Positions 2,722-12,775 of a stretch of DNA of 13,376 nucleotides are shown here, in pieces. Below the pieces are notes generated by a model. That model saw nothing but the letters and a program-made list of their open reading frames with translations. It made no database searches and had not been told where the DNA came from. Numbering within the stretch: the first letter of the stretch is position 1; the number at the start of each line of letters is the position of its first letter. A program made the translations under genes and the position numbers. Source of the stretch: a virus; the IMG/VR virus record IMGVR_UViG_3300031760_000017; one strand, 5' to 3'.

Positions 2722-3477
2722 ATGTTTTGTTTAAATTATTATCCACATGAAAAATATCTTAATGATGCGGATTAGTTAAAAATCAAATATCGTCCTGCAG
2801 ACCGCACATTAGAAGATTTTTTAAAAACTTATCAAAATATTTCAATAATTATAGACGTATCTGAGGCTTTTGAAGAAACTGATGCCGAATTATTAAAAGC
2901 ATTGTATGATAAATATTCTAATTTTAAAATAATCTTTGATTTTAATAATAAAGAACATTTATCAAGAGCAGAAAAATATCAAATTCCGCATTTCTTCTTG
3001 AACCCAGTTACAAGTTTTGATCAACTTCATGGATTAATTCAATATCATCCAACAGATATGTATATTTGTGAAGAAATGGGGTTCTATATCTTTTGGATTA
3101 GTAAATTATTGCATGAAAATAATATAAAAGTTAGAGTGTTTCCTAATATTTGTCAATCTAGTTTTGCGGAAACTCCTAGTATAAAGACTTTCTTTGTCAG
3201 ACCAGAAGATATATCTATCTATTCAAATTATGTAGATGTGTTTGAATTAGTTTCAGATAAAGATAGACAGAAAGTTTTATTTAAAATTTATAAACAGCAA
3301 AAATGGTTTGGTAAATTACAGGAGGTAATTCCATCATTTAAAGACGATGTTGATAACAGATGTCTTATGAGCGCTTTTGGAAACCTTCGGACTAGATGTA
3401 AAAAACGATGTATGTATAATCCTAATGGGTGTAAGACTTGTGATCGTTTTGTTGAATTAGCAAACTCTTTAAAGTAG
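2722..3477 (+). CDS. Hypothetical protein (about 251 aa if read through) with an in-frame TAG at codon 18 (2773-2775) and a C-terminal Cys-rich segment (RCKKRCMYNPNGCKTCDRF)
   Basis: ATG at 2722 has a very good SD (TAAGGAGA, 6-nt spacer). The frame stays open for 251 codons apart from the single TAG at 2773-2775. The six-frame track instead starts this ORF at an internal TTG (2902), which has no SD and no upstream ATG. The gene itself ends in TAG (3475-3477); read-through there would add 13 codons up to a TGA at 3514-3516. Confidence 0.5.
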
Positions 3478-3512
3478 AATAGAATCATCGTTAAACGAGC
3501 TGAAAAGAAAAG

Positions 3513-3541
3513 TTGACATTTTTAATAATTTTTGATATAAT
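3513..3541 (+). promoter_or_regulatory. Promoter P3 (perfect consensus -35 TTGACA, 17 bp, TGaTATAAT)
   Basis: TTGACA at 3513-3518; TATAAT at 3536-3541 with TG at 3533-3534. Drives ORFs 3574 and 3904 and the tRNA-Arg/Ile pair. Confidence 0.75.
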
Positions 3542-4377: not shown

Positions 4378-4380
4378 TAT

Positions 4381-4452
4381 GGGGCATTAGCTCAGTGGTG
4401 AGAGCGCTGGTCTTATAAACCAGTGATACTGGTTCGACTCCATTATGCCCTA
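4381..4452 (+). tRNA. tRNA-Ile (anticodon UAU, AUA-decoding), an uncommon isoacceptor
   Basis: Acceptor GGGGCAT/ATGCCCT (G1-U72 wobble). D-arm GCTC-AGTGGTGA-GAGC. Anticodon stem CTGGT/ACCAG with loop CTTATAA. T-loop TTCGACT. Confidence 0.8.
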
Positions 4453-4467
4453 TTTAAAAAATCTTTT

Positions 4468-4496
4468 TTGATTTTTTATAAAATTTATTATATAAT
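4468..4496 (+). promoter_or_regulatory. Promoter P4 (-35 TTGATT, 17 bp, TATAAT) upstream of the sigma factor gene
   Basis: TTGATT at 4468-4473; TATAAT at 4491-4496. No TG extension in this copy. Confidence 0.65.
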
Positions 4497-4537
4497 ATAT
4501 ATACAGTAAAGATAGAAAAAACAAAAAGGAGTTTACT

Positions 4538-5389
4538 ATGGCAGAAATTAAAGCATCTGAAGCAACCACTGTTAATTCTATTAAAGTTTATCTCAATGAA
4601 ATTAGTCAGTATAATCTTCTTTCAAAAGAAGATGAAGTAAGATATGCGAAAGCTGCAGCAAATGGAAGTCAGGAAGCAAAGAATGCTCTGATTAACCACA
4701 ATCTCCGTCTTGTTGTTTCTATTGCTAAAAAGTATATGGGAAGAGGGCTTACTCTTTCTGACCTTATTCAGGAAGGTAATTTTGGTCTGATAAAGGCAAC
4801 AGAAAAGTATGATGTTGATAAGGGATTTAGATTTTCTACTTATGCAACCTATTGGATTAAGCAGTCTATTTCCCGTGCGGTTATGGACCAGACTAGAAAT
4901 ATCCGTATCCCTATTCATGTTATTGAGCTGATTAGTAAGATTAAGAAAGCTGAAAGAGATTTTCAGCAGTCTTATAACAGAGAGCCGAAAGAAGTGGATA
5001 TTGCGGCAGTTCTTGGAATTGATGTCAAGAAAATTAAAGAAGCGTATTCTTGGATGAAAGATACTTCTTCTCTTGATGTAGTCGTGGGAGATGATGAGGA
5101 TACCACTGTTGGTTCTTTTATTGAAGATGAGTCTGTTGCGGATTCTTTTATGAATATTGAGGATGATGAAAGAAAAGAAGCAGTTCAGAATATTCTTAAT
5201 ACCTTGAATGACCGTGAACAGCTTATTATTAAAAATAGATTTGGTATTGGCATGAATAGAGCAAAAACACTTGATGAAATTGGTAAGGAACTTGGTATTA
5301 GTAGAGAACGAGTTCGTCAGATTGAAGCGGCTGCTCTTAAGAAGCTCCGCAATCCGCGAAGAGCTGCTCTGCTAAAGGAATTTTTCTAA
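4538..5389 (+). CDS. Sigma-70 family RNA polymerase sigma factor (RpoD-like, regions 2-4 present, no region 1.1)
   Basis: Region 2 motifs are seen in the translation (LIQEGNFGLIKATEKYD..GFRFSTYATYWIKQSISRAV), with the RpoD-box-like YATYWIKQ. The region-4 helix-turn-helix is TLDEIGKELGISRERVRQIEAAALKKLRNP. Length is 283 aa. Promoter copy P4 and RBS AAAAAGGAG lie upstream. Confidence 0.85.
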   Translation: MAEIKASEATTVNSIKVYLNEISQYNLLSKEDEVRYAKAAANGSQEAKNALINHNLRLVVSIAKKYMGRGLTLSDLIQEGNFGLIKATEKYDVDKGFRFSTYATYWIKQSISRAVMDQTRNIRIPIHVIELISKIKKAERDFQQSYNREPKEVDIAAVLGIDVKKIKEAYSWMKDTSSLDVVVGDDEDTTVGSFIEDESVADSFMNIEDDERKEAVQNILNTLNDREQLIIKNRFGIGMNRAKTLDEIGKELGISRERVRQIEAAALKKLRNPRRAALLKEFF

Positions 5390-5459
5390 AATTTCTTGGG
5401 CGGGCTTGATTAAAGAATTTCTAAGAATTTTTATTAACATTAGATTCTTAAAAGATTTA

Positions 5460-5488
5460 TTGATTTTTTAAAAAATATATTATATAAT
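5460..5488 (+). promoter_or_regulatory. Promoter P5 (-35 TTGATT, 17 bp, TATAAT)
   Basis: TTGATT at 5460-5465; TATAAT at 5483-5488. Drives small ORF 5519. Confidence 0.65.
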
Positions 5489-5518
5489 ATATATGTAAGG
5501 TTAAGAAAGGATTATTAA

Positions 5519-5695
5519 ATGACAGTTAGAGAATTGTTAGAGGAAATTATTGAAGCAGCGCCTAATAGATTGGATTCAGAAATTTATTTTGAGACACCAA
5601 TGAATGATTATTCAGTTCAATGTTATGTGCTTGATGATATAACGAGTTATGGTAATAATGATGGTCTTTTCTTTGTACTTAAAGAAAATATTTGA
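5519..5695 (+). CDS. Small hypothetical protein (58 aa) not in the ORF track
   Basis: Promoter copy P5 lies upstream with RBS AAGAAAGGATTATTAA then ATG. Translation is MTVRELLEEIIEAAPNRLDSEIYFETPMNDYSVQCYVLDDITSYGNNDGLFFVLKENI. The TGA stop overlaps the -35 of promoter P6. Confidence 0.45.
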   Translation: MTVRELLEEIIEAAPNRLDSEIYFETPMNDYSVQCYVLDDITSYGNNDGLFFVLKENI

Positions 5696-5720
5696 TTTTT
5701 AAAAAAATATATGATATAAT
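5692..5720 (+). promoter_or_regulatory. Promoter P6 (-35 TTGATT, 17 bp, TGaTATAAT) heading a tRNA operon
   Basis: TTGATT at 5692-5697 overlaps the TGA stop of ORF 5519. TATAAT at 5715-5720 with TG at 5712-5713. A roughly 180-nt ORF-free leader runs to tRNA-Asn. Confidence 0.65.
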
Positions 5721-5900
5721 ATATATATAATAAAGATAGTAGAACAGCAATTTAAGAAAATCTTGATGATATAATTTTAAAAAAATTGAAATTCACTGGA
5801 AAACTAATAAAGAACTAAAGTTTTTTGTGGCTCATATTTTTTTGATAAAGTTGCCTACCTATAAAAGGAATTTAGAAAAAGAGCTTACTATCTTGTTTAA

Positions 5901-5973: not shown

Positions 5974-6429
5974 CGCCGGCTTCACGCCGATATAGTGAGG
6001 TGTTCTTCCTACCAAAAAGGAATAGTGTAAAAGAACGGTTCATAAAAGAAGGTAAGTCCCAAAGGGCACAGAAATTATGAAAAGTACGTACACGTTTGCA
6101 TTTGAGATACGCGGCTCAAATGATGCACGCCCGCGGTATGGGACAGGTCAGATTCTAGTAAGTGAGCTAGAATTGTGGGTTCAAGCCCCACTGCTGCACT
6201 TAGAGTTGATTTACCTCTTGCCAATGTAAATCTAAGCTGTTGAGGATACAGCCGCGAGCGCCATCGGGGGAGTAAAGGACGAGTGGTCAGGCATTCTTGG
6301 TGCCTGGTAAAAGTCAAGTATCTTTGAAAGGTTATAAAGGTGAAACCTTTCTCGCATCTCAGATAGTGAGAGTAAGGTATAGTAGATACCTGAGCAGGGC
6401 TGAAAGGGTGGCACCTATCTACTAAATAT
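5974..6429 (+). ncRNA. Candidate structured non-coding RNA or spacer (about 455 nt) between tRNA-Asn and the UAG-anticodon tRNA
   Basis: No ORF with an RBS on either strand. GC is clearly higher than in coding DNA. Several local helices, including a perfect T-arm-like hairpin GTGGG-TTCAAGC-CCCAC at 6175-6191 that lacks the rest of a cloverleaf. Co-transcribed from P6. Confidence 0.35.
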
Positions 6430-6504
6430 GCTCCAGTAGCCCAATTGGCATGAGGCGTCTGACTTAGGATCAGAATCGTGTGGGTTCGAGTCCCTCCTGG
6501 AGTA
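6430..6504 (+). tRNA. Class-I tRNA with anticodon UAG (a Leu CUA/CUG-reading anticodon on a short-variable-arm body); identity uncertain
   Basis: Acceptor GCTCCAG/CTGGAGT (G1-U72). D-loop CAATTGGCA. Anticodon stem TCTGA/TCAGA with loop CTTAGGA. 5-nt variable loop ATCGT. T-arm GTGGG-TTCGAGT-CCCTC. Discriminator A. The body closely resembles tRNA-Thr at 9054. Confidence 0.6.
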
Positions 6505-6536
6505 TTTAATATTTATAAATATGGAGAATAAAATTT

Positions 6537-6798: not shown

Positions 6799-7224
6799 CT
6801 AGAGGAAATGGCATCGCCTCTCTAAATATAGACTGCAGGGTTCGCCACTCGGATCAGAAAAACGAGCTTGTAGCAAGGCGTAATGACTACACGAGCCATA
6901 AAACGTGCATCCATCTTCGTGTGTGCTTATTATTATAAGTAAGTGTGGAAGAAGTATGAGTGGAAGTCTCATAAAACTAAGTTCCCGAGGCTCAAACTAC
7001 AAATCGGATTTGTCAGATAAGACATTAAAATCGACGTTAACATGGATTAGAGTTAAACTACCACTGGCATGACCAAATATTCAGGCTTTTCAATTCTAAA
7101 CAGCCTGCCTGAAGGCGCATGATATGTGGCTTTGTGGCAAACGTCTAATAAGAAGGCAAAGTAAACTCAGTTATCAGTATTTATCGCGCCTCTTGATAAT
7201 GCGTACCAAGATAAATCTTTTTAT
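6799..7224 (+). ncRNA. Candidate structured non-coding spacer (about 425 nt) after tRNA-Asp
   Basis: ORF-free and GC-richer than coding DNA. Hairpins include ACAAAT-CGG-ATTTGT and CAGGC...GCCTG. Confidence 0.3.
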
Positions 7225-7253
7225 TTGATATTTATAAAAAAATATAATATAAT
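7225..7253 (+). promoter_or_regulatory. Promoter P7 (-35 TTGATA, 17 bp, TATAAT)
   Basis: TTGATA at 7225-7230; TATAAT at 7248-7253 within a TATAATATAATAT run. Drives ORF 7301 and tRNA-Glu. Confidence 0.55.
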
Positions 7254-7300
7254 ATTATTGTAAGTTAAAAAACAATCTTTTTAAGAAAAGGAGAGTAGCT

Positions 7301-7507: not shown

Positions 7508-7676
7508 TTAATCGTTGATAGACAAGTATTAAAAGTCGATAAGAAAATAAAGCCGAATTACATAGGGACATTGAGGAGAGACACCTCATAGAGCGGGGGA
7601 AGATCCATAAGATACTCTAAAAATCATCTATGCAACCCTATACGGATGCGTGTGATTGAAACTGCACACTCAGCGA

Positions 7677-7705
7677 TTGATTTTTATAAAAAATTTTGTT
7701 ATAAT
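7677..7705 (+). promoter_or_regulatory. Promoter P8 (-35 TTGATT, 17 bp, TGtTATAAT)
   Basis: TTGATT at 7677-7682; TATAAT at 7700-7705 with TG at 7697-7698. Drives ORF 7730. Confidence 0.7.
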
Positions 7706-7729
7706 ATTTATATGAGAAAAGGAGAAAAA

Positions 7730-8401: not shown

Positions 8402-8475
8402 CGCCCGATAGTGGAGTGGCTTAACACAGCGGTCTCTAAAACCGCGGATCCTGGGTTCGAATCCCAGTCGGGTGA
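8402..8475 (+). tRNA. Suppressor tRNA, anticodon CUA (reads the UAG amber codon); class I, amino-acid identity undetermined
   Basis: Acceptor CGCCCGA/TCGGGTG (one G-U). Anticodon stem GCGGT/ACCGC with loop CTCTAAA, giving U33, C34 U35 A36 and A37. Variable loop GGATC. T-arm CTGGG-TTCGAAT-CCCAG is perfect. Discriminator A. The anticodon arm differs from a Trp(CCA)-type loop CTCCAAA by a single nucleotide. Confidence 0.8.
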
Positions 8476-9053: not shown

Positions 9054-9126
9054 GCCTTTCTGGCGCAATTGGCAGCGCATCTGATTTGTAATCAGACGGT
9101 TAAGGGTTCGAGTCCCTTGGGAGGCT
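9054..9126 (+). tRNA. tRNA-Thr (anticodon UGU)
   Basis: Acceptor GCCTTTC/GGGAGGC (two G-U). D-arm GCGC-AATTGGCA-GCGC. Anticodon stem TCTGA/TCAGA with loop TTTGTAA. T-arm AAGGG-TTCGAGT-CCCTT. Confidence 0.8.
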
Positions 9127-9154: not shown

Positions 9155-9338
9155 GGATGTGCGGTTAGCTGACCTTAAAGTGAAGTATGCCCTATTCCGA
9201 GGAGGCGATTTCGGGAGTAGTTATTTTGGTTAGTTGACGAAACTGTAAAACTACGAAATATCGGATGACCAAAAAGCTTCCTCCAGAGAACAAATGTCGG
9301 GAGGTTAAACGTGGATGGGTGGTTGGCTGACCTTAAAG
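9155..9338 (+). repeat. Imperfect 26-nt direct repeat (23/26): GGATGTGCGGTTAGCTGACCTTAAAG at 9155-9180 and GGATGGGTGGTTGGCTGACCTTAAAG at 9313-9338
   Basis: Seen by eye. The second copy lies immediately 5' of the CAA-anticodon tRNA at 9344. The first is followed by degenerate, non-folding sequence. Confidence 0.5.
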
Positions 9339-9343
9339 CTTAT

Positions 9344-9417
9344 GCGGAGATGACGCAATTGGCAGACGTGACAACCTCAAAAGTTGTATAGTTAGAGTTC
9401 GAATCTCTTTCTCCGTA
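9344..9417 (+). tRNA. Class-I tRNA with anticodon CAA (a Leu UUG-reading anticodon on a short-variable-arm body); identity uncertain
   Basis: Acceptor GCGGAGA/TCTCCGT (G1-U72). D-loop CAATTGGCAGA. Anticodon stem ACAAC/GTTGT with loop CTCAAAA. 5-nt variable loop. T-arm AGAG-TTCGAAT-CTCT. Discriminator A. Confidence 0.6.
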
Positions 9418-9421
9418 TTAT

Positions 9422-9496
9422 GTAGGGATGATGCAGACGTGGGAAACATGATAATTTAGAAAATTATTTATGAAGGTTCGAGCCCTTCACCCTACT
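9422..9496 (+). pseudogene. tRNA-like element, probable pseudo-tRNA (anticodon loop reads AGA on an all-A/U stem; acceptor has an A-A mismatch)
   Basis: Acceptor GTAGGGA/ACCCTAC with 6 of 7 positions paired. Anticodon stem ATAAT/ATTAT with loop TTAGAAA. T-arm GAAGG-TTCGAGC-CCTTC is perfect. The element abuts the -35 of promoter P9. Confidence 0.35.
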
Positions 9497-9497
9497 T

Positions 9498-9526
9498 TTG
9501 ATTTTTTATAAAAATTATAATATAAT
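9498..9526 (+). promoter_or_regulatory. Promoter P9 (-35 TTGATT, 17 bp, TATAAT)
   Basis: TTGATT at 9498-9503; TATAAT at 9521-9526. The transcript begins with the conserved AAAGACAGATACAGCAA motif and runs into the tRNA-like fragment and tRNA-Leu(UAA). Confidence 0.65.
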
Positions 9527-9579
9527 ATATATGTAAGATAAAAAGACAGATACAGCAAACTTTCTTTCAAGAATATTAA

Positions 9580-9633
9580 GTGATATGGTTCACAAATTGT
9601 CTGTAAAACAATGTTAGCTGGTTCGAGTCCAGT
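9580..9633 (+). pseudogene. Truncated tRNA-like fragment with a Tyr-type anticodon arm (GUA); no pairable acceptor stem found
   Basis: D-arm GTGA-TATGGT-TCAC. Anticodon stem ATTGT/ACAAT with loop CTGTAAA. T-arm GCTGG-TTCGAGT-CCAGT. The flanking 7-mers (GAATATT / ATAAAAG) do not pair. Lies about 40 nt downstream of the P9 transcription start. Confidence 0.3.
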
Positions 9634-9788
9634 ATAAAAGGTATAATTGAGCTGTCTTGATTAAAAAATAGCGCCGATGAAGGTCGGTTTGGGAATTAAC
9701 CCAAATAAGATGCAAAACAGGCGGGGGTCGCGCCCCTACAAAACTTCAGATATAGGCGAGGGACTGACTGAAGGGAAGCTATTTATTA

Positions 9789-9871
9789 GCGGGTATGGCG
9801 GAATGGCAGACGCATGGGACTTAAAATCCCTGGGGCGCAAGCTCGTGCGAGTTCAAGTCTCGCTACCCGCA
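9789..9871 (+). tRNA. tRNA-Leu (anticodon UAA), canonical class II
   Basis: Acceptor GCGGGTA/TACCCGC is perfect. Anticodon loop CTTAAAA. 15-nt variable arm GGGGCGCAAGCTCGT. T-arm GCGAG-TTCAAGT-CTCGC. Discriminator A. Confidence 0.85.
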
Positions 9872-10622: not shown

Positions 10623-10800
10623 CTACTATATCTTGAGCGGTTTGGAATCCGCTACTATTAATTTTATTGTTGGTTGGTTAAAATGTAGGTAAACCCATCC
10701 ATAGGGCAAGATATAATTTTAATAAGGTTTTGCAAAACTTATATATTCGTCGATGACGAAAGAAAAATGTTCAATAGCAAATGATTAGGAATGAACAATC

Positions 10801-10873
10801 TGATGGGTAGCTCAATTGGGAGAAGCAACGCCATGTGGCGGCGTGGATAGAGATTCGAATTCTCTCCCATCAA
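10801..10873 (+). tRNA. tRNA-His (anticodon GUG), copy 1; no G-1 encoded
   Basis: Acceptor TGATGGG/CCCATCA is perfect. Anticodon stem ACGCC/GGCGT with loop ATGTGGC. T-arm AGAGA-TTCGAAT-TCTCT. Discriminator A, with C at position -1. Confidence 0.7.
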
Positions 10874-10879
10874 CTATTA

Positions 10880-10965
10880 GGTGCGGATCTGGCTGGATGA
10901 AGACGCGGTCTTGAAAACCGTCGGGCGTGATGAGCGCCTTGGGGGTTCGAGTCCCTCCCGCATCG
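10880..10965 (+). tRNA. tRNA-Ser (anticodon UGA), class II
   Basis: Acceptor GGTGCGG/CCGCATC (one G-U). Anticodon stem GCGGT/ACCGT with loop CTTGAAA. Long variable arm CGGGCGTGATGAGCGCC. T-arm GGGGG-TTCGAGT-CCCTC. Discriminator G. Confidence 0.75.
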
Positions 10966-10979
10966 CTAAGGAGAATAAT

Positions 10980-11390: not shown

Positions 11391-11474
11391 CCCCTATTAA
11401 ACCGTTAAGGAGGCGGGCGGGGCTGTAAACTCCGCATCGGAAGATTCGAGTGGGTTCGATACCCTCATGGGGGA
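11391..11474 (+). tRNA. tRNA-Tyr (anticodon GUA), class II
   Basis: Acceptor CCCCTAT/ATGGGGG (one G-U). Anticodon stem CGGGG/CTCCG with loop CTGTAAA. About 15-nt variable arm. T-arm GTGGG-TTCGATA-CCCTC. Discriminator A. Confidence 0.7.
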
Positions 11475-11539
11475 CTGTGTATACACATTAGATCCTCAGG
11501 TTTGGTAGTTTCAGCGAGCAGAGATGGAAACTACCTATA

Positions 11540-11685: not shown

Positions 11686-11743
11686 GGGGAACTCCAGGGT
11701 AAGATACTCTGCAGGAGAGGTTGTGCTCCCCACTTTATTTTTT
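11686..11743 (+). terminator. Terminator-like GC-clamped hairpin with U-tract at the end of the tRNA-Ser/Tyr/Val operon
   Basis: GGGGA at 11686-11690 pairs with TCCCC at 11727-11731 around an internal CTCC/GGAG helix, followed by ACTTTATTTTTT. Confidence 0.4.
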
Positions 11744-11762
11744 ATAAAAAATATGATATAAT
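11734..11762 (+). promoter_or_regulatory. Promoter P10 (weak -35 TTTATT, 17 bp, extended -10 TGaTATAAT)
   Basis: TTTATT at 11734-11739 lies within the T-tract of the upstream terminator-like hairpin. TATAAT at 11757-11762 with TG at 11754-11755. Drives ORF 11794. Confidence 0.55.
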
Positions 11763-11793
11763 ATATTTATAAAAGATAAGGGAGAAAAATATT

Positions 11794-12018: not shown

Positions 12019-12513
12019 ATGATACAATTATATACAAGTTATTTTTATCAAATCCGCCACTTTAAAAAGAATATGGTGCCTATTTCGACAGCAATGTGGG
12101 ATCCAAAATGGTATCATGATTGGATGGGTCATGATTATACTTTTAAGGACAAGAGGGGAATATATAATGGTATTCGCGCAGAATGTTTTCATTTTGATGG
12201 AGAAGATCATGGATGCGGCGATCAATGTTTACTCTCACCCAAAGATCCGTCTAAATGTGAATTTTTGCGGCGTCTCCGCCAACAATATAATAAATTAAAT
12301 TTTCAAGATATTATGACTCGATGTGAAAGGTTAGCTTCTTACATTCAGTCTATTGAAAATTTACAAGAATTACCTATTTTAGTTTTTGTTTTTTATGAAA
12401 CTCCTACAAACTTATGTTCAGAAAGAAAAACTTTACAAAATTGGTTTAAAGATAATGGATATGATTTACAAGAATTGAAATATCCAATAAAAGATAATTA
12501 TATTGATATTTAA
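12019..12513 (+). CDS. Hypothetical protein (164 aa) with an HxD/CGD Cys/His cluster
   Basis: ATG directly after the previous TAA, in the same frame. 495-nt ORF ending in TAATAA; the stop overlaps promoter copy P11. Confidence 0.6.
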   Translation: MIQLYTSYFYQIRHFKKNMVPISTAMWDPKWYHDWMGHDYTFKDKRGIYNGIRAECFHFDGEDHGCGDQCLLSPKDPSKCEFLRRLRQQYNKLNFQDIMTRCERLASYIQSIENLQELPILVFVFYETPTNLCSERKTLQNWFKDNGYDLQELKYPIKDNYIDI

Positions 12514-12531
12514 TAAAAATTTTGATATAAT
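12503..12531 (+). promoter_or_regulatory. Promoter P11 (-35 TTGATA, 17 bp, TGaTATAAT)
   Basis: TTGATA at 12503-12508 overlaps the end of ORF 12019-12513. TATAAT at 12526-12531 with TG at 12523-12524. Drives the tRNA-Ile/Pro/His cluster. Confidence 0.65.
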
Positions 12532-12546
12532 ATATAAGTAAGGTAA

Positions 12547-12620
<74 letters not shown>

Positions 12621-12702: not shown

Positions 12703-12775
12703 GTGGATATAGCATAATTGGTAATGCAGCGGATTGTGGATCCGCCGAGTGAGGGTTCAATCCCCTCTATCCACC
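12703..12775 (+). tRNA. tRNA-His (anticodon GUG), copy 2; C73 discriminator but no G-1 encoded
   Basis: Acceptor GTGGATA/TATCCAC is perfect. D-arm GCAT-AATTGGTAA-TGC. Anticodon stem GCGGA/TCCGC with loop TTGTGGA. T-arm GAGGG-TTCAATC-CCCTC. Discriminator C. Confidence 0.75.

Follow-up and report, generated by a model that had tools for sequence, protein, structure and literature searches.

Two transfer RNA (tRNA) genes in a viral DNA stretch of 13,376 nucleotides (nt), IMG/VR record IMGVR_UViG_3300031760_000017, carry the leucine anticodons UAG and CAA on bodies that lack a long variable arm. We refer to the whole stretch as the window and to the two genes as the UAG and CAA tRNAs. Both are very probably functional leucine tRNAs that would be charged by the host leucyl-tRNA synthetase (LeuRS) through A73 and the D-arm/tertiary core and would decode CUN and UUG. 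They appear to be members of a widespread arm-less tRNA-Leu lineage, which occurs in phage tRNA arrays and on many Actinomycetota chromosomes. A first-pass annotation of the window had recognized the two short-armed genes, their 5-nt variable loops, their A73 and a canonical class II tRNA-Leu(UAA) close by, all of which our analysis confirms. It had also taken the pair for threonine-type bodies with changed anticodons, which we do not uphold, and had proposed charging with leucine (with A73 mattering), mischarging or a decoy role, of which our sequence comparisons support the first. The three leucine tRNA genes are as follows.

6430-6504, + strand: class I tRNA-Leu, anticodon UAG (ARAGORN, Rfam RF00005 and our own cloverleaf parse).
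9344-9417, + strand: class I tRNA-Leu, anticodon CAA (ARAGORN, Rfam RF00005 and our own cloverleaf parse).
9789-9871, + strand: class II tRNA-Leu(UAA) with a 15-nt variable arm (ARAGORN, Rfam at 56.2 bits and parse).

Both short-armed genes have the structure of a complete tRNA. In a search of the whole window, RF00005 matches each over its full length (model positions 1-71), at 54.0 bits for the UAG tRNA (E 1.6e-9) and 49.7 bits for the CAA tRNA (E 2.6e-8), and both lie above the gathering threshold of 29 bits. ARAGORN and Rfam read the anticodon loops in one register, as CUUAGGA and CUCAAAA, respectively. A different anticodon reached through another stem register, which the first-pass annotation had named as a way for its reading to fail, was considered and rejected, as the two programs agree and neither proposes one. 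The UAG tRNA parses as GCTCCAG TA GCCCAATTGGCATGAGGC G TCTGA CTTAGGA TCAGA ATCGT GTGGG TTCGAGT CCCTC CTGGAGT A, and the CAA tRNA as GCGGAGA TG ACGCAATTGGCAGACGT G ACAAC CTCAAAA GTTGT ATAGT TAGAG TTCGAAT CTCTT TCTCCGT A. Their variable loops, ATCGT and ATAGT, are 5 nt long and do not qualify as a long arm, which takes at least 10 nt with a stem. The acceptor stems (GCTCCAG/CTGGAGT and GCGGAGA/TCTCCGT) each contain G1.U72, and CCA is encoded in neither gene. On the minus strand at 6430-6505, the only match is Plastid-ycf2, at a chance level of 19 bits against a gathering score of 65.7, and we found no open reading frame (ORF) of at least 50 amino acids overlapping either gene.

The bodies of these tRNAs are of the leucine type. 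Escherichia coli LeuRS requires A73, A15-U48, G18G19 and A20a and can do without the long arm, whose sequence and fold are uncorrelated with leucylation; arm-less minimal tRNA-Leu variants stay active (PMC9976931). The identity set defined in E. coli is present in the UAG and CAA tRNAs as A73, the tertiary core and an extra D-loop nucleotide with a D stem of 3 base pairs (bp). U8, A14, A15, G18G19, U48 and A73 are all in place, and C13 and A22 are unpaired. The 18-nt D arm of the UAG tRNA, GCCCAATTGGCATGAGGC, has a 3-bp stem and the loop segment GG-CATG-A, with 4 nt from G19 to position 22, and the D arm of the CAA tRNA, ACGCAATTGGCAGACGT, has a 3-bp stem and GG-CAG-A, with 3 nt between G19 and position 22. 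The class II tRNA-Leu(UAA) has the same D-arm architecture: its D arm, GCGGAATGGCAGACGC (GCGG-AATGGCAG-A-CGC), forms a 3-bp stem with G13 and A22 unpaired, and A15, U48 and A73 are present. Type I (UAG, CAA) and type II (UAA) tRNA-Leu coexist within the window, and with the UAG tRNA assigned to CUN and the CAA tRNA to UUG, the three cover all six leucine codons.

We scanned public collections with the D arm alone, so that the anticodon, position 73, position 48 and the variable-loop length were not part of the patterns. The UAG-type pattern, TAGCCCAAYTGGYAN{0,1}GAGGC, had at least 120 matching stretches each in bacterial genomes and viral contigs. Every tRNA call over the matches listed has a leucine anticodon (116/116 in the genomes and 117/117 in the viral contigs) and a length of 74-78 nt, and the anticodons include UAA, UAG, CAA, CAG, GAG and AAG. 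The CAA-type pattern, TGACGSAAYTGGYAKACGT, matched 123 sites in viral contigs with 107 tRNA calls, 103 of them leucine (87 class I and 16 class II of 83-87 nt) and none threonine. Among all matches listed, 336 of the 340 tRNA calls carry one of the six leucine anticodons, and no threonine anticodon occurs. One body that spans six anticodons of two unrelated codon boxes, and class II tRNA-Leu as well, argues for leucine identity rather than an edited tRNA-Thr body.

The identity positions are nearly invariant throughout the tRNAs collected in the scanned loci, including class I members that lie outside both search patterns. The loci were fetched with D-arm patterns derived from the family, so the following counts are not an unbiased census.

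Class I tRNA-Leu, 403 unique: A73 in 402, 13/22 unpaired in 393, A15 in 399, U48 in 394.
Class I tRNA-Leu outside both search patterns, 131: A73 in 130, 13/22 unpaired in 121, A15 in 127, U48 in 127.
Class II tRNA-Leu in the same loci, 104: A73 in 103, 13/22 unpaired in 102, A15 in 102, U48 in 103.

A14 is found in 400 of the 403 class I tRNAs. We defined a joint leucine signature as the combination of A73, A15 and U48 with unpaired 13/22 and an interval of 3 nt or more separating G19 from position 22. The UAG and CAA tRNAs carry this signature, as do 380 of the 403 unique class I tRNAs that have a leucine anticodon; the window's own tRNA-Thr fails it together with all 136 tRNA-Thr collected. 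It occurs in at most 3% of each other isotype with more than six tRNAs and in one of six short tRNAs with tyrosine anticodons. Outside the variable region, pairs of class I and class II tRNA-Leu are as much as 85.5% identical. The length of the region grades through 5, 7, 10, 11, 13 and 15 nt among leucine tRNAs, a pattern consistent with repeated shortening of the arm.

The resemblance to tRNA-Thr reported in the first-pass annotation is real, and it is not diagnostic. The string CAATTGGCA is indeed common to the D loops of both genes and of tRNA-Thr(UGU) at 9054, and the UAG tRNA shares the anticodon stem TCTGA/TCAGA; the stem of the CAA tRNA, in contrast, is ACAAC/GTTGT. These shared elements are the chief support for a mischarging reading, in which another synthetase, such as threonyl-tRNA synthetase (ThrRS), charges the two tRNAs and CUN and UUG partly mean another amino acid. 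CUN is reassigned to threonine in yeast mitochondria, and a recoding of TAG, described below, probably occurs in this phage. We nevertheless consider the mischarging reading scarcely credible. The D stem, D loop and position 73 all differ from those of tRNA-Thr(UGU), whose D arm (GCGC-AATTGGCA-GCGC) is 16 nt long, with a 4-bp stem that pairs 13-22, 2 nt between G19 and position 22, and U73. The D arms of the UAG and CAA tRNAs are 17-18 nt long with a 3-bp stem (10-25, 11-24 and 12-23) and have 3 or 4 nt in the corresponding interval. In the threonine tRNAs of the arrays, too, the D stem has 4 bp, the D loop is shorter and position 73 is mostly U, and the TCTGA/TCAGA stem is absent from the threonine tRNAs of related phages. 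E. coli ThrRS reads the anticodon bases G35 and U36, both of which are missing from the UAG and CAA tRNAs, where A35 is followed by G36 or A36 in place of the threonine anticodon NGU. Raw D-arm similarity across 185 array tRNAs nearly ties class II tRNA-Leu (mean score, 4.15) with tRNA-Thr (3.74), and we therefore rely on architecture, the joint signature and the anticodon association.

Codon usage also bears on mischarging, as comparisons with homologs indicate that CUN and UUG mean leucine in this phage. The window encodes a complete sigma-70-type factor at 4538-5389 whose closest solved relatives are SigA in PDB 8x6f, 7ckq and 7l7b (E ~1e-78). As a diverse bacterial set, homologs of this factor were of no use, since the best 120 matches were close phage relatives only, and solved SigA structures were used instead. 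We compared it with two of these three, which we take to be the SigA proteins of Bacillus subtilis and Clostridioides difficile. Codons that fall on leucine in both references are CTC in 3/3 cases, CTT in 8/13, CTG in 2/4, TTG in 1/1 and CTA in 1/1, and the remaining 5/13 CTT codons lie opposite M, F or one variable position. In 13 pairs of orthologous ORFs from the phage and a sister clade, CTN and TTG stand mainly opposite leucine; their exchanges are with TTA or with codons for Met, Phe, Ile and Val rather than for Ser, Ala or Thr, whereas ACN codons exchange with Ser and Ala. CTN makes up ~72% of the leucine codons counted in the phage, and since CUN and UUG mean leucine, a tRNA that inserted threonine at them would be harmful. 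The two genes can accordingly be annotated as tRNA-Leu; they are neither edited tRNA-Thr bodies nor evidence of codon reassignment.

The structure of these tRNAs is under selection. In an alignment of 22 diverse members, 92.8% of cells are paired, compared with ~62% in shuffled alignments and 36-47% in slid controls, and both sides have changed in 18 of the 22 pairs. A73 is present in all 22 members, 13-22 is unpaired in 20/22, A15-U48 occurs in 19/22 and G1.U72 in 17/22. In the sister clade (locus L012, 11663-11739), whose sigma factor is 74% identical to that of the window, the UAG tRNA is retained with compensatory changes at pairs 2-71 and 6-67 of the acceptor stem and 12-23 of the D stem. 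Such constraint speaks against the possibility that the genes are decoys or decaying pseudogenes, that is, tRNA-shaped and uncharged molecules that act as a sponge for anticodon nucleases or tRNA-binding toxins, or mere degenerating copies. This possibility draws support from other doubtful genes in the array (a class I "Ser(AGA)", an element at 9574-9636 and a gene with a His/Tyr anticodon on a leucine-type body, all described below) and from the fact that E. coli LeuRS refuses one naturally occurring type I tRNA-Leu (PMC6614811). We judge it very unlikely in view of the strong covariation and of identity positions that hardly vary over hundreds of diverged copies from phages and bacteria unrelated to one another. 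A decoy has no need of A73 and the LeuRS core elements, and the anticodon loops suit decoding, with U33 in both tRNAs and A36A37A38 in the CAA tRNA. The two anticodons and that of tRNA-Leu(UAA) also make up a complete leucine set, and CCA is encoded in 207 of the 403 class I leucine tRNAs, including copies in Enterobacter and Cronobacter phages.

Relatives of the two genes are found well beyond the window. Cultured-phage records that match the UAG tRNA number 111; in 106, the match covers at least 80% of the tRNA, and the matches listed carry a tRNA-Leu annotation. The UAG tRNA shares 89% identity with the gene annotated as tRNA-Leu(tag) in Gordonia phage Sixama, 79-83% with copies in Certrevirus (phages of Enterobacter, Cronobacter and Klebsiella) and 77% with those in Bxz1-like Mycobacterium phages, and its matches include prophages of Mycobacterium abscessus. 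In 28 Gb of E. coli genomes, blastn found nothing similar to the UAG tRNA at a cutoff as loose as E = 10, and this search therefore had no bearing on isotype. The D arm of the CAA tRNA recurs in tRNA-Leu(caa) of Cronobacter phage S13, and short tRNAs with UAG and CAA anticodons occur in further viral contigs of 269 kb (L001) and 40 kb (L002). Among bacteria, the class I tRNA-Leu D arm is present in at least 120 genomes (loci L016-L135), mostly of Actinomycetota. This phylum accounts for ~85% of 80 listed genome records, with carriers in Nocardia, Corynebacterium, Mycobacterium, Amycolatopsis, Gordonia and the Arthrobacter group, and a few cyanobacteria and Planctomycetota make up part of the rest. 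Within 8-kb loci, 89 of 123 genome matches lie in single-tRNA loci, and their anticodon is often UAA. In many Actinomycetota, the arm-less tRNA-Leu thus has the look of an ordinary chromosomal gene, beyond the single studied case in Streptomyces.

Leucine appears to be the only one of the three class II tRNA types that loses its arm in phages. Across 10 phage lineages, leucine tRNAs measure 74-80 nt, whereas serine tRNAs (81-95 nt) and tyrosine tRNAs (82-88 nt) keep long arms, and in the scanned viral loci 156 of 158 serine and 64 of 69 tyrosine tRNAs are at least 80 nt long. The likely reason is that the seryl- and tyrosyl-tRNA synthetases (SerRS and TyrRS) make use of the arm, unlike LeuRS.

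Class I tRNA-Leu is a textbook case in animal mitochondria. Human mitochondrial tRNA-Leu(UUR), an example, is class I like the window genes and has A73 and A14 as identity elements (PMC9976931), but it is organellar and structurally relaxed and has a dedicated LeuRS, and the likeness we draw is architectural, with no claim of sequence kinship. Bacterial tRNA-Leu is described as almost always type II (PMC6614811). Class II bacterial tRNA-Leu, such as those of E. coli and the UAA gene of the window, shares the identity set, the 3-bp D stem and the anticodons of the short genes and differs in having an arm of 10-17 nt with a stem in place of a 5-nt loop. The closest described bacterial parallel is the type I tRNA-Leu(CAA) of Streptomyces coelicolor, which has a leucine anticodon and a 5-nt variable loop, depends on U8-A14, coexists with class II tRNA-Leu within one cell, and is leucylated by the S. 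coelicolor LeuRS (ScoLeuRS) and by human mitochondrial LeuRS (PMC6614811). Its variable loop is ACAGC, compared with ATAGT and ATCGT in the window and ACAGT in phage Sixama. Unlike the window genes, it is chromosomal and has C48 rather than U48, and the likeness is by description only; in its system, A73 is no determinant and a particular leucine-specific domain of LeuRS is needed (PMC6614811).

The nearest annotated counterparts are the short tRNA-Leu genes of phage Sixama, Cronobacter phages CR3, CR8 and CR9 and Enterobacter phage F1M1E (Certrevirus), Cronobacter phage S13 (Straboviridae), Mycobacterium Bixzunavirus (Cali/Bxz1), M. abscessus prophi86-1 and the crAss-like Kehishuvirus. Like the window genes, these are short (73-77 nt), with UAG, CAA, UAA, CAG or GAG anticodons, A73, a 3-bp D stem and A15-U48, and they often share the acceptor GCTCCNG with G1.U72. 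They differ in that the enterobacterial and mycobacterial phage copies often encode CCA, that the phage families and hosts are others, and that the D arm of the window's UAG tRNA, at 18 nt, is one D-loop nucleotide longer.

We propose that the UAG and CAA tRNAs would be transcribed on the + strand from the repeated sigma-A-type promoters of the array, processed, and supplied with CCA by a host enzyme. Under established identity rules, host LeuRS would then add leucine by reading A73 together with U8-A14, A15-U48, G18G19 and the extra D-loop nucleotide, and it would ignore the anticodon and the long arm. The UAG tRNA would decode CUN and the CAA tRNA UUG as leucine, with the class II tRNA-Leu(UAA) completing the set. 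No aminoacyl-tRNA synthetase gene was seen in the gene lists of ~20 kb around the array.

Several observations weigh against this proposal. E. coli LeuRS does not charge the natural type I tRNA-Leu(CAA) of S. coelicolor in vitro (PMC6614811), which indicates that some bacterial LeuRS enzymes, possibly including that of the phage's host, refuse arm-less tRNA-Leu. Our literature search found no paper on phage class I tRNA-Leu, though GenBank annotates phage copies as tRNA-Leu, and no report of their charging, expression or modification. Raw D-arm similarity ranks the window's tRNA-Thr at the top for the CAA tRNA, slightly above class II tRNA-Leu, a ranking that would also favor mischarging. Several degenerate or odd tRNA-like genes in the same array point to some decay in the region, and the family counts come from the selective sampling noted above. 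Position 37 is mixed in members with NAG anticodons (G in 82, A in 110), and we dropped an argument from a uniform G37 in CUN readers on these numbers.

A refinement of the leucine reading, rather improbable in our estimation, is that loss of the arm serves as a counter-defense. These tRNAs would then be leucine acceptors that evade host nucleases or toxins recognizing class II variable arms, so that leucine decoding is kept while host tRNA-Leu is destroyed. Septu and retron-Eco7 cleave tRNA-Tyr in its variable loop, and the tRNA-Tyr of phage T5 resists (PMC13096335). The T5 tRNA is, like the window genes, a phage tRNA of class II type whose variable region is unlike that of the host, although it keeps a long arm and its resistance to retron-Eco7 and Septu has been demonstrated experimentally (PMC13096335, PMC11555353). 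Other published work adds that human SLFN11 favors type II tRNAs (cited in PMC13462974) and that phage tRNAs evade tRNA-targeting defenses (PMC10264068, PMC11555353). The class I form is also very frequent in phage arrays, and the arm is lost solely in the class II isotype whose synthetase tolerates the loss. On the other side, the literature we searched yielded no bacterial defense nuclease that targets tRNA-Leu or its variable arm, and the phage also retains a class II tRNA-Leu(UAA). In addition, many Actinomycetota have a lone chromosomal class I tRNA-Leu for which such a role is not obvious, and these chromosomal copies indicate that the arm-less architecture is not phage specific. If true, counter-defense would account for the hundreds of phage arrays that combine arm-less leucine tRNAs with long-armed serine and tyrosine tRNAs.

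Leucine tRNAs without an arm are common in phage tRNA arrays, enterobacterial phages included, and on Actinomycetota chromosomes in our survey. They form a widespread yet little-discussed class, and they raise the questions of which LeuRS enzymes accept them and whether the loss of the arm protects from tRNA-targeting defenses.

The array in the window comprises 22 tRNA genes by ARAGORN, all on the + strand, 20 of which Rfam RF00005 reports at its gathering threshold. Outside the tRNAs, the G+C content is low at ~33%, and small ORFs without known function are present, one of which matches phrog_30451. The SigA-like sigma factor hints at a Bacillota host. Compared at near identity with cultured phages, the complete window gave short tRNA-Phe matches only, indicating that the source phage has no cultured close relative. 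The same sigma factor is found on many metagenomic contigs of 84-140 kb; locus L014 represents the same phage as the window, and L003/L004 and L012 represent relatives. A promoter-like repeat of ~50 nt occurs in eight copies on the + strand with the elements TTGATT (or TTGATA), 17 nt and TATAAT. It is apparently a strong promoter in reiterated form, from which we infer that the array tRNAs are transcribed in several short units. The copies and the two candidate promoters nearest to the short tRNA-Leu genes are as follows.

4466-4516, 5458-5508, 5690-5740 and 7223-7273, + strand: promoter-like repeat copies.
7675-7725, 9496-9546, 11732-11782 and 12501-12551, + strand: promoter-like repeat copies.
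5692-5720, + strand: candidate promoter TTGATT-17 nt-TATAAT with a TG extension (repeat family D1; consensus scan 10/12).
7677-7705, + strand: candidate promoter of repeat family D1 (repeat analysis and consensus scan).

The candidate at 5692-5720 is the nearest upstream copy for tRNA-Asn, tRNA-Leu(UAG), a small ORF and tRNA-Asp, which it probably drives. The one at 7677-7705 is the nearest copy upstream of a suppressor tRNA(CUA), tRNA-Met, tRNA-Thr and tRNA-Leu(CAA) and would serve them likewise. A perfect 9-bp inverted repeat (TAGTAGATA, 27 nt, TATCTACTA) spans 6380-6424 just upstream of tRNA-Leu(UAG), and a 26-nt direct repeat, GGATGNGNGGTTRGCTGACCTTAAAG, lies at 9155-9180 and 9313-9338 upstream of tRNA-Leu(CAA). 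Both may be processing or regulatory elements.

Several other tRNA genes of the array are unusual. The suppressor tRNA with anticodon CUA lies at 8402-8475 (62.8 bits), and the frame of the ORF at 2722-3516 stays open through two in-frame TAG codons (codons 18 and 253). Its sister-clade ortholog (L012, 6544-7338) has Glu and Thr at those sites and a TAG of its own at codon 14. The suppressor tRNA and the in-frame TAG codons suggest that TAG is probably read through or recoded in the phage.

The class I tRNA at 10801-10874 has the histidine anticodon GUG on a body with the full leucine-type signature (3-bp D stem, A15, U48 and A73). It is without G-1 (base 10800 is C), the identity features for the histidyl-tRNA synthetase and TyrRS are absent, and a canonical tRNA-His is found at 12703-12775. 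Its ortholog in L004 (2557-2630) has GUA (Tyr), one anticodon base being changed, and differs at several other positions. The gene could be a leucine-accepting tRNA with a non-leucine anticodon or a decaying copy; under the counter-defense scenario, its body could put leucine at non-leucine codons.

Some calls are doubtful as tRNAs. The class I "tRNA-Ser(AGA)" at 9422-9496 (35.8 bits) has a 4-nt variable loop, U73 and an A7/A66 mismatch, and ARAGORN makes no such call in the related phage L004. Bacterial SerRS needs a long arm and G73, and the gene is therefore unlikely to be a serine acceptor. The element at 9574-9636 scores 25.4 bits, below the gathering threshold of 29, and combines the loop CUGUAAA (GUA) and a good T arm with a defective acceptor stem. 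We take it for a probable remnant of a tRNA. ARAGORN also calls a tRNA-Ser(UGA) at 10886-10966, whose D arm is aberrantly short and whose anticodon falls at position 27, and a tRNA-Tyr(GUA) at 11391-11475 that starts with C1. Rfam reports neither at its gathering threshold, and both are conserved in L004.

The tRNA-Ile at 4380-4453 (68.4 bits) has the anticodon UAU, which is also annotated in phage Sixama. Bacteria normally read AUA with a lysidine-modified CAU tRNA, which makes UAU unusual. Homing-endonuclease genes of the GIY-YIG and HNH/NUMOD4 types lie in and beside the tRNA array of the sister clade (L012, 7395-8192 and 13123-13668), and HNH genes also occur inside the tRNA arrays of Sixama and a crAss-like phage, which suggests that endonucleases drive the shuffling of tRNA genes between phages.

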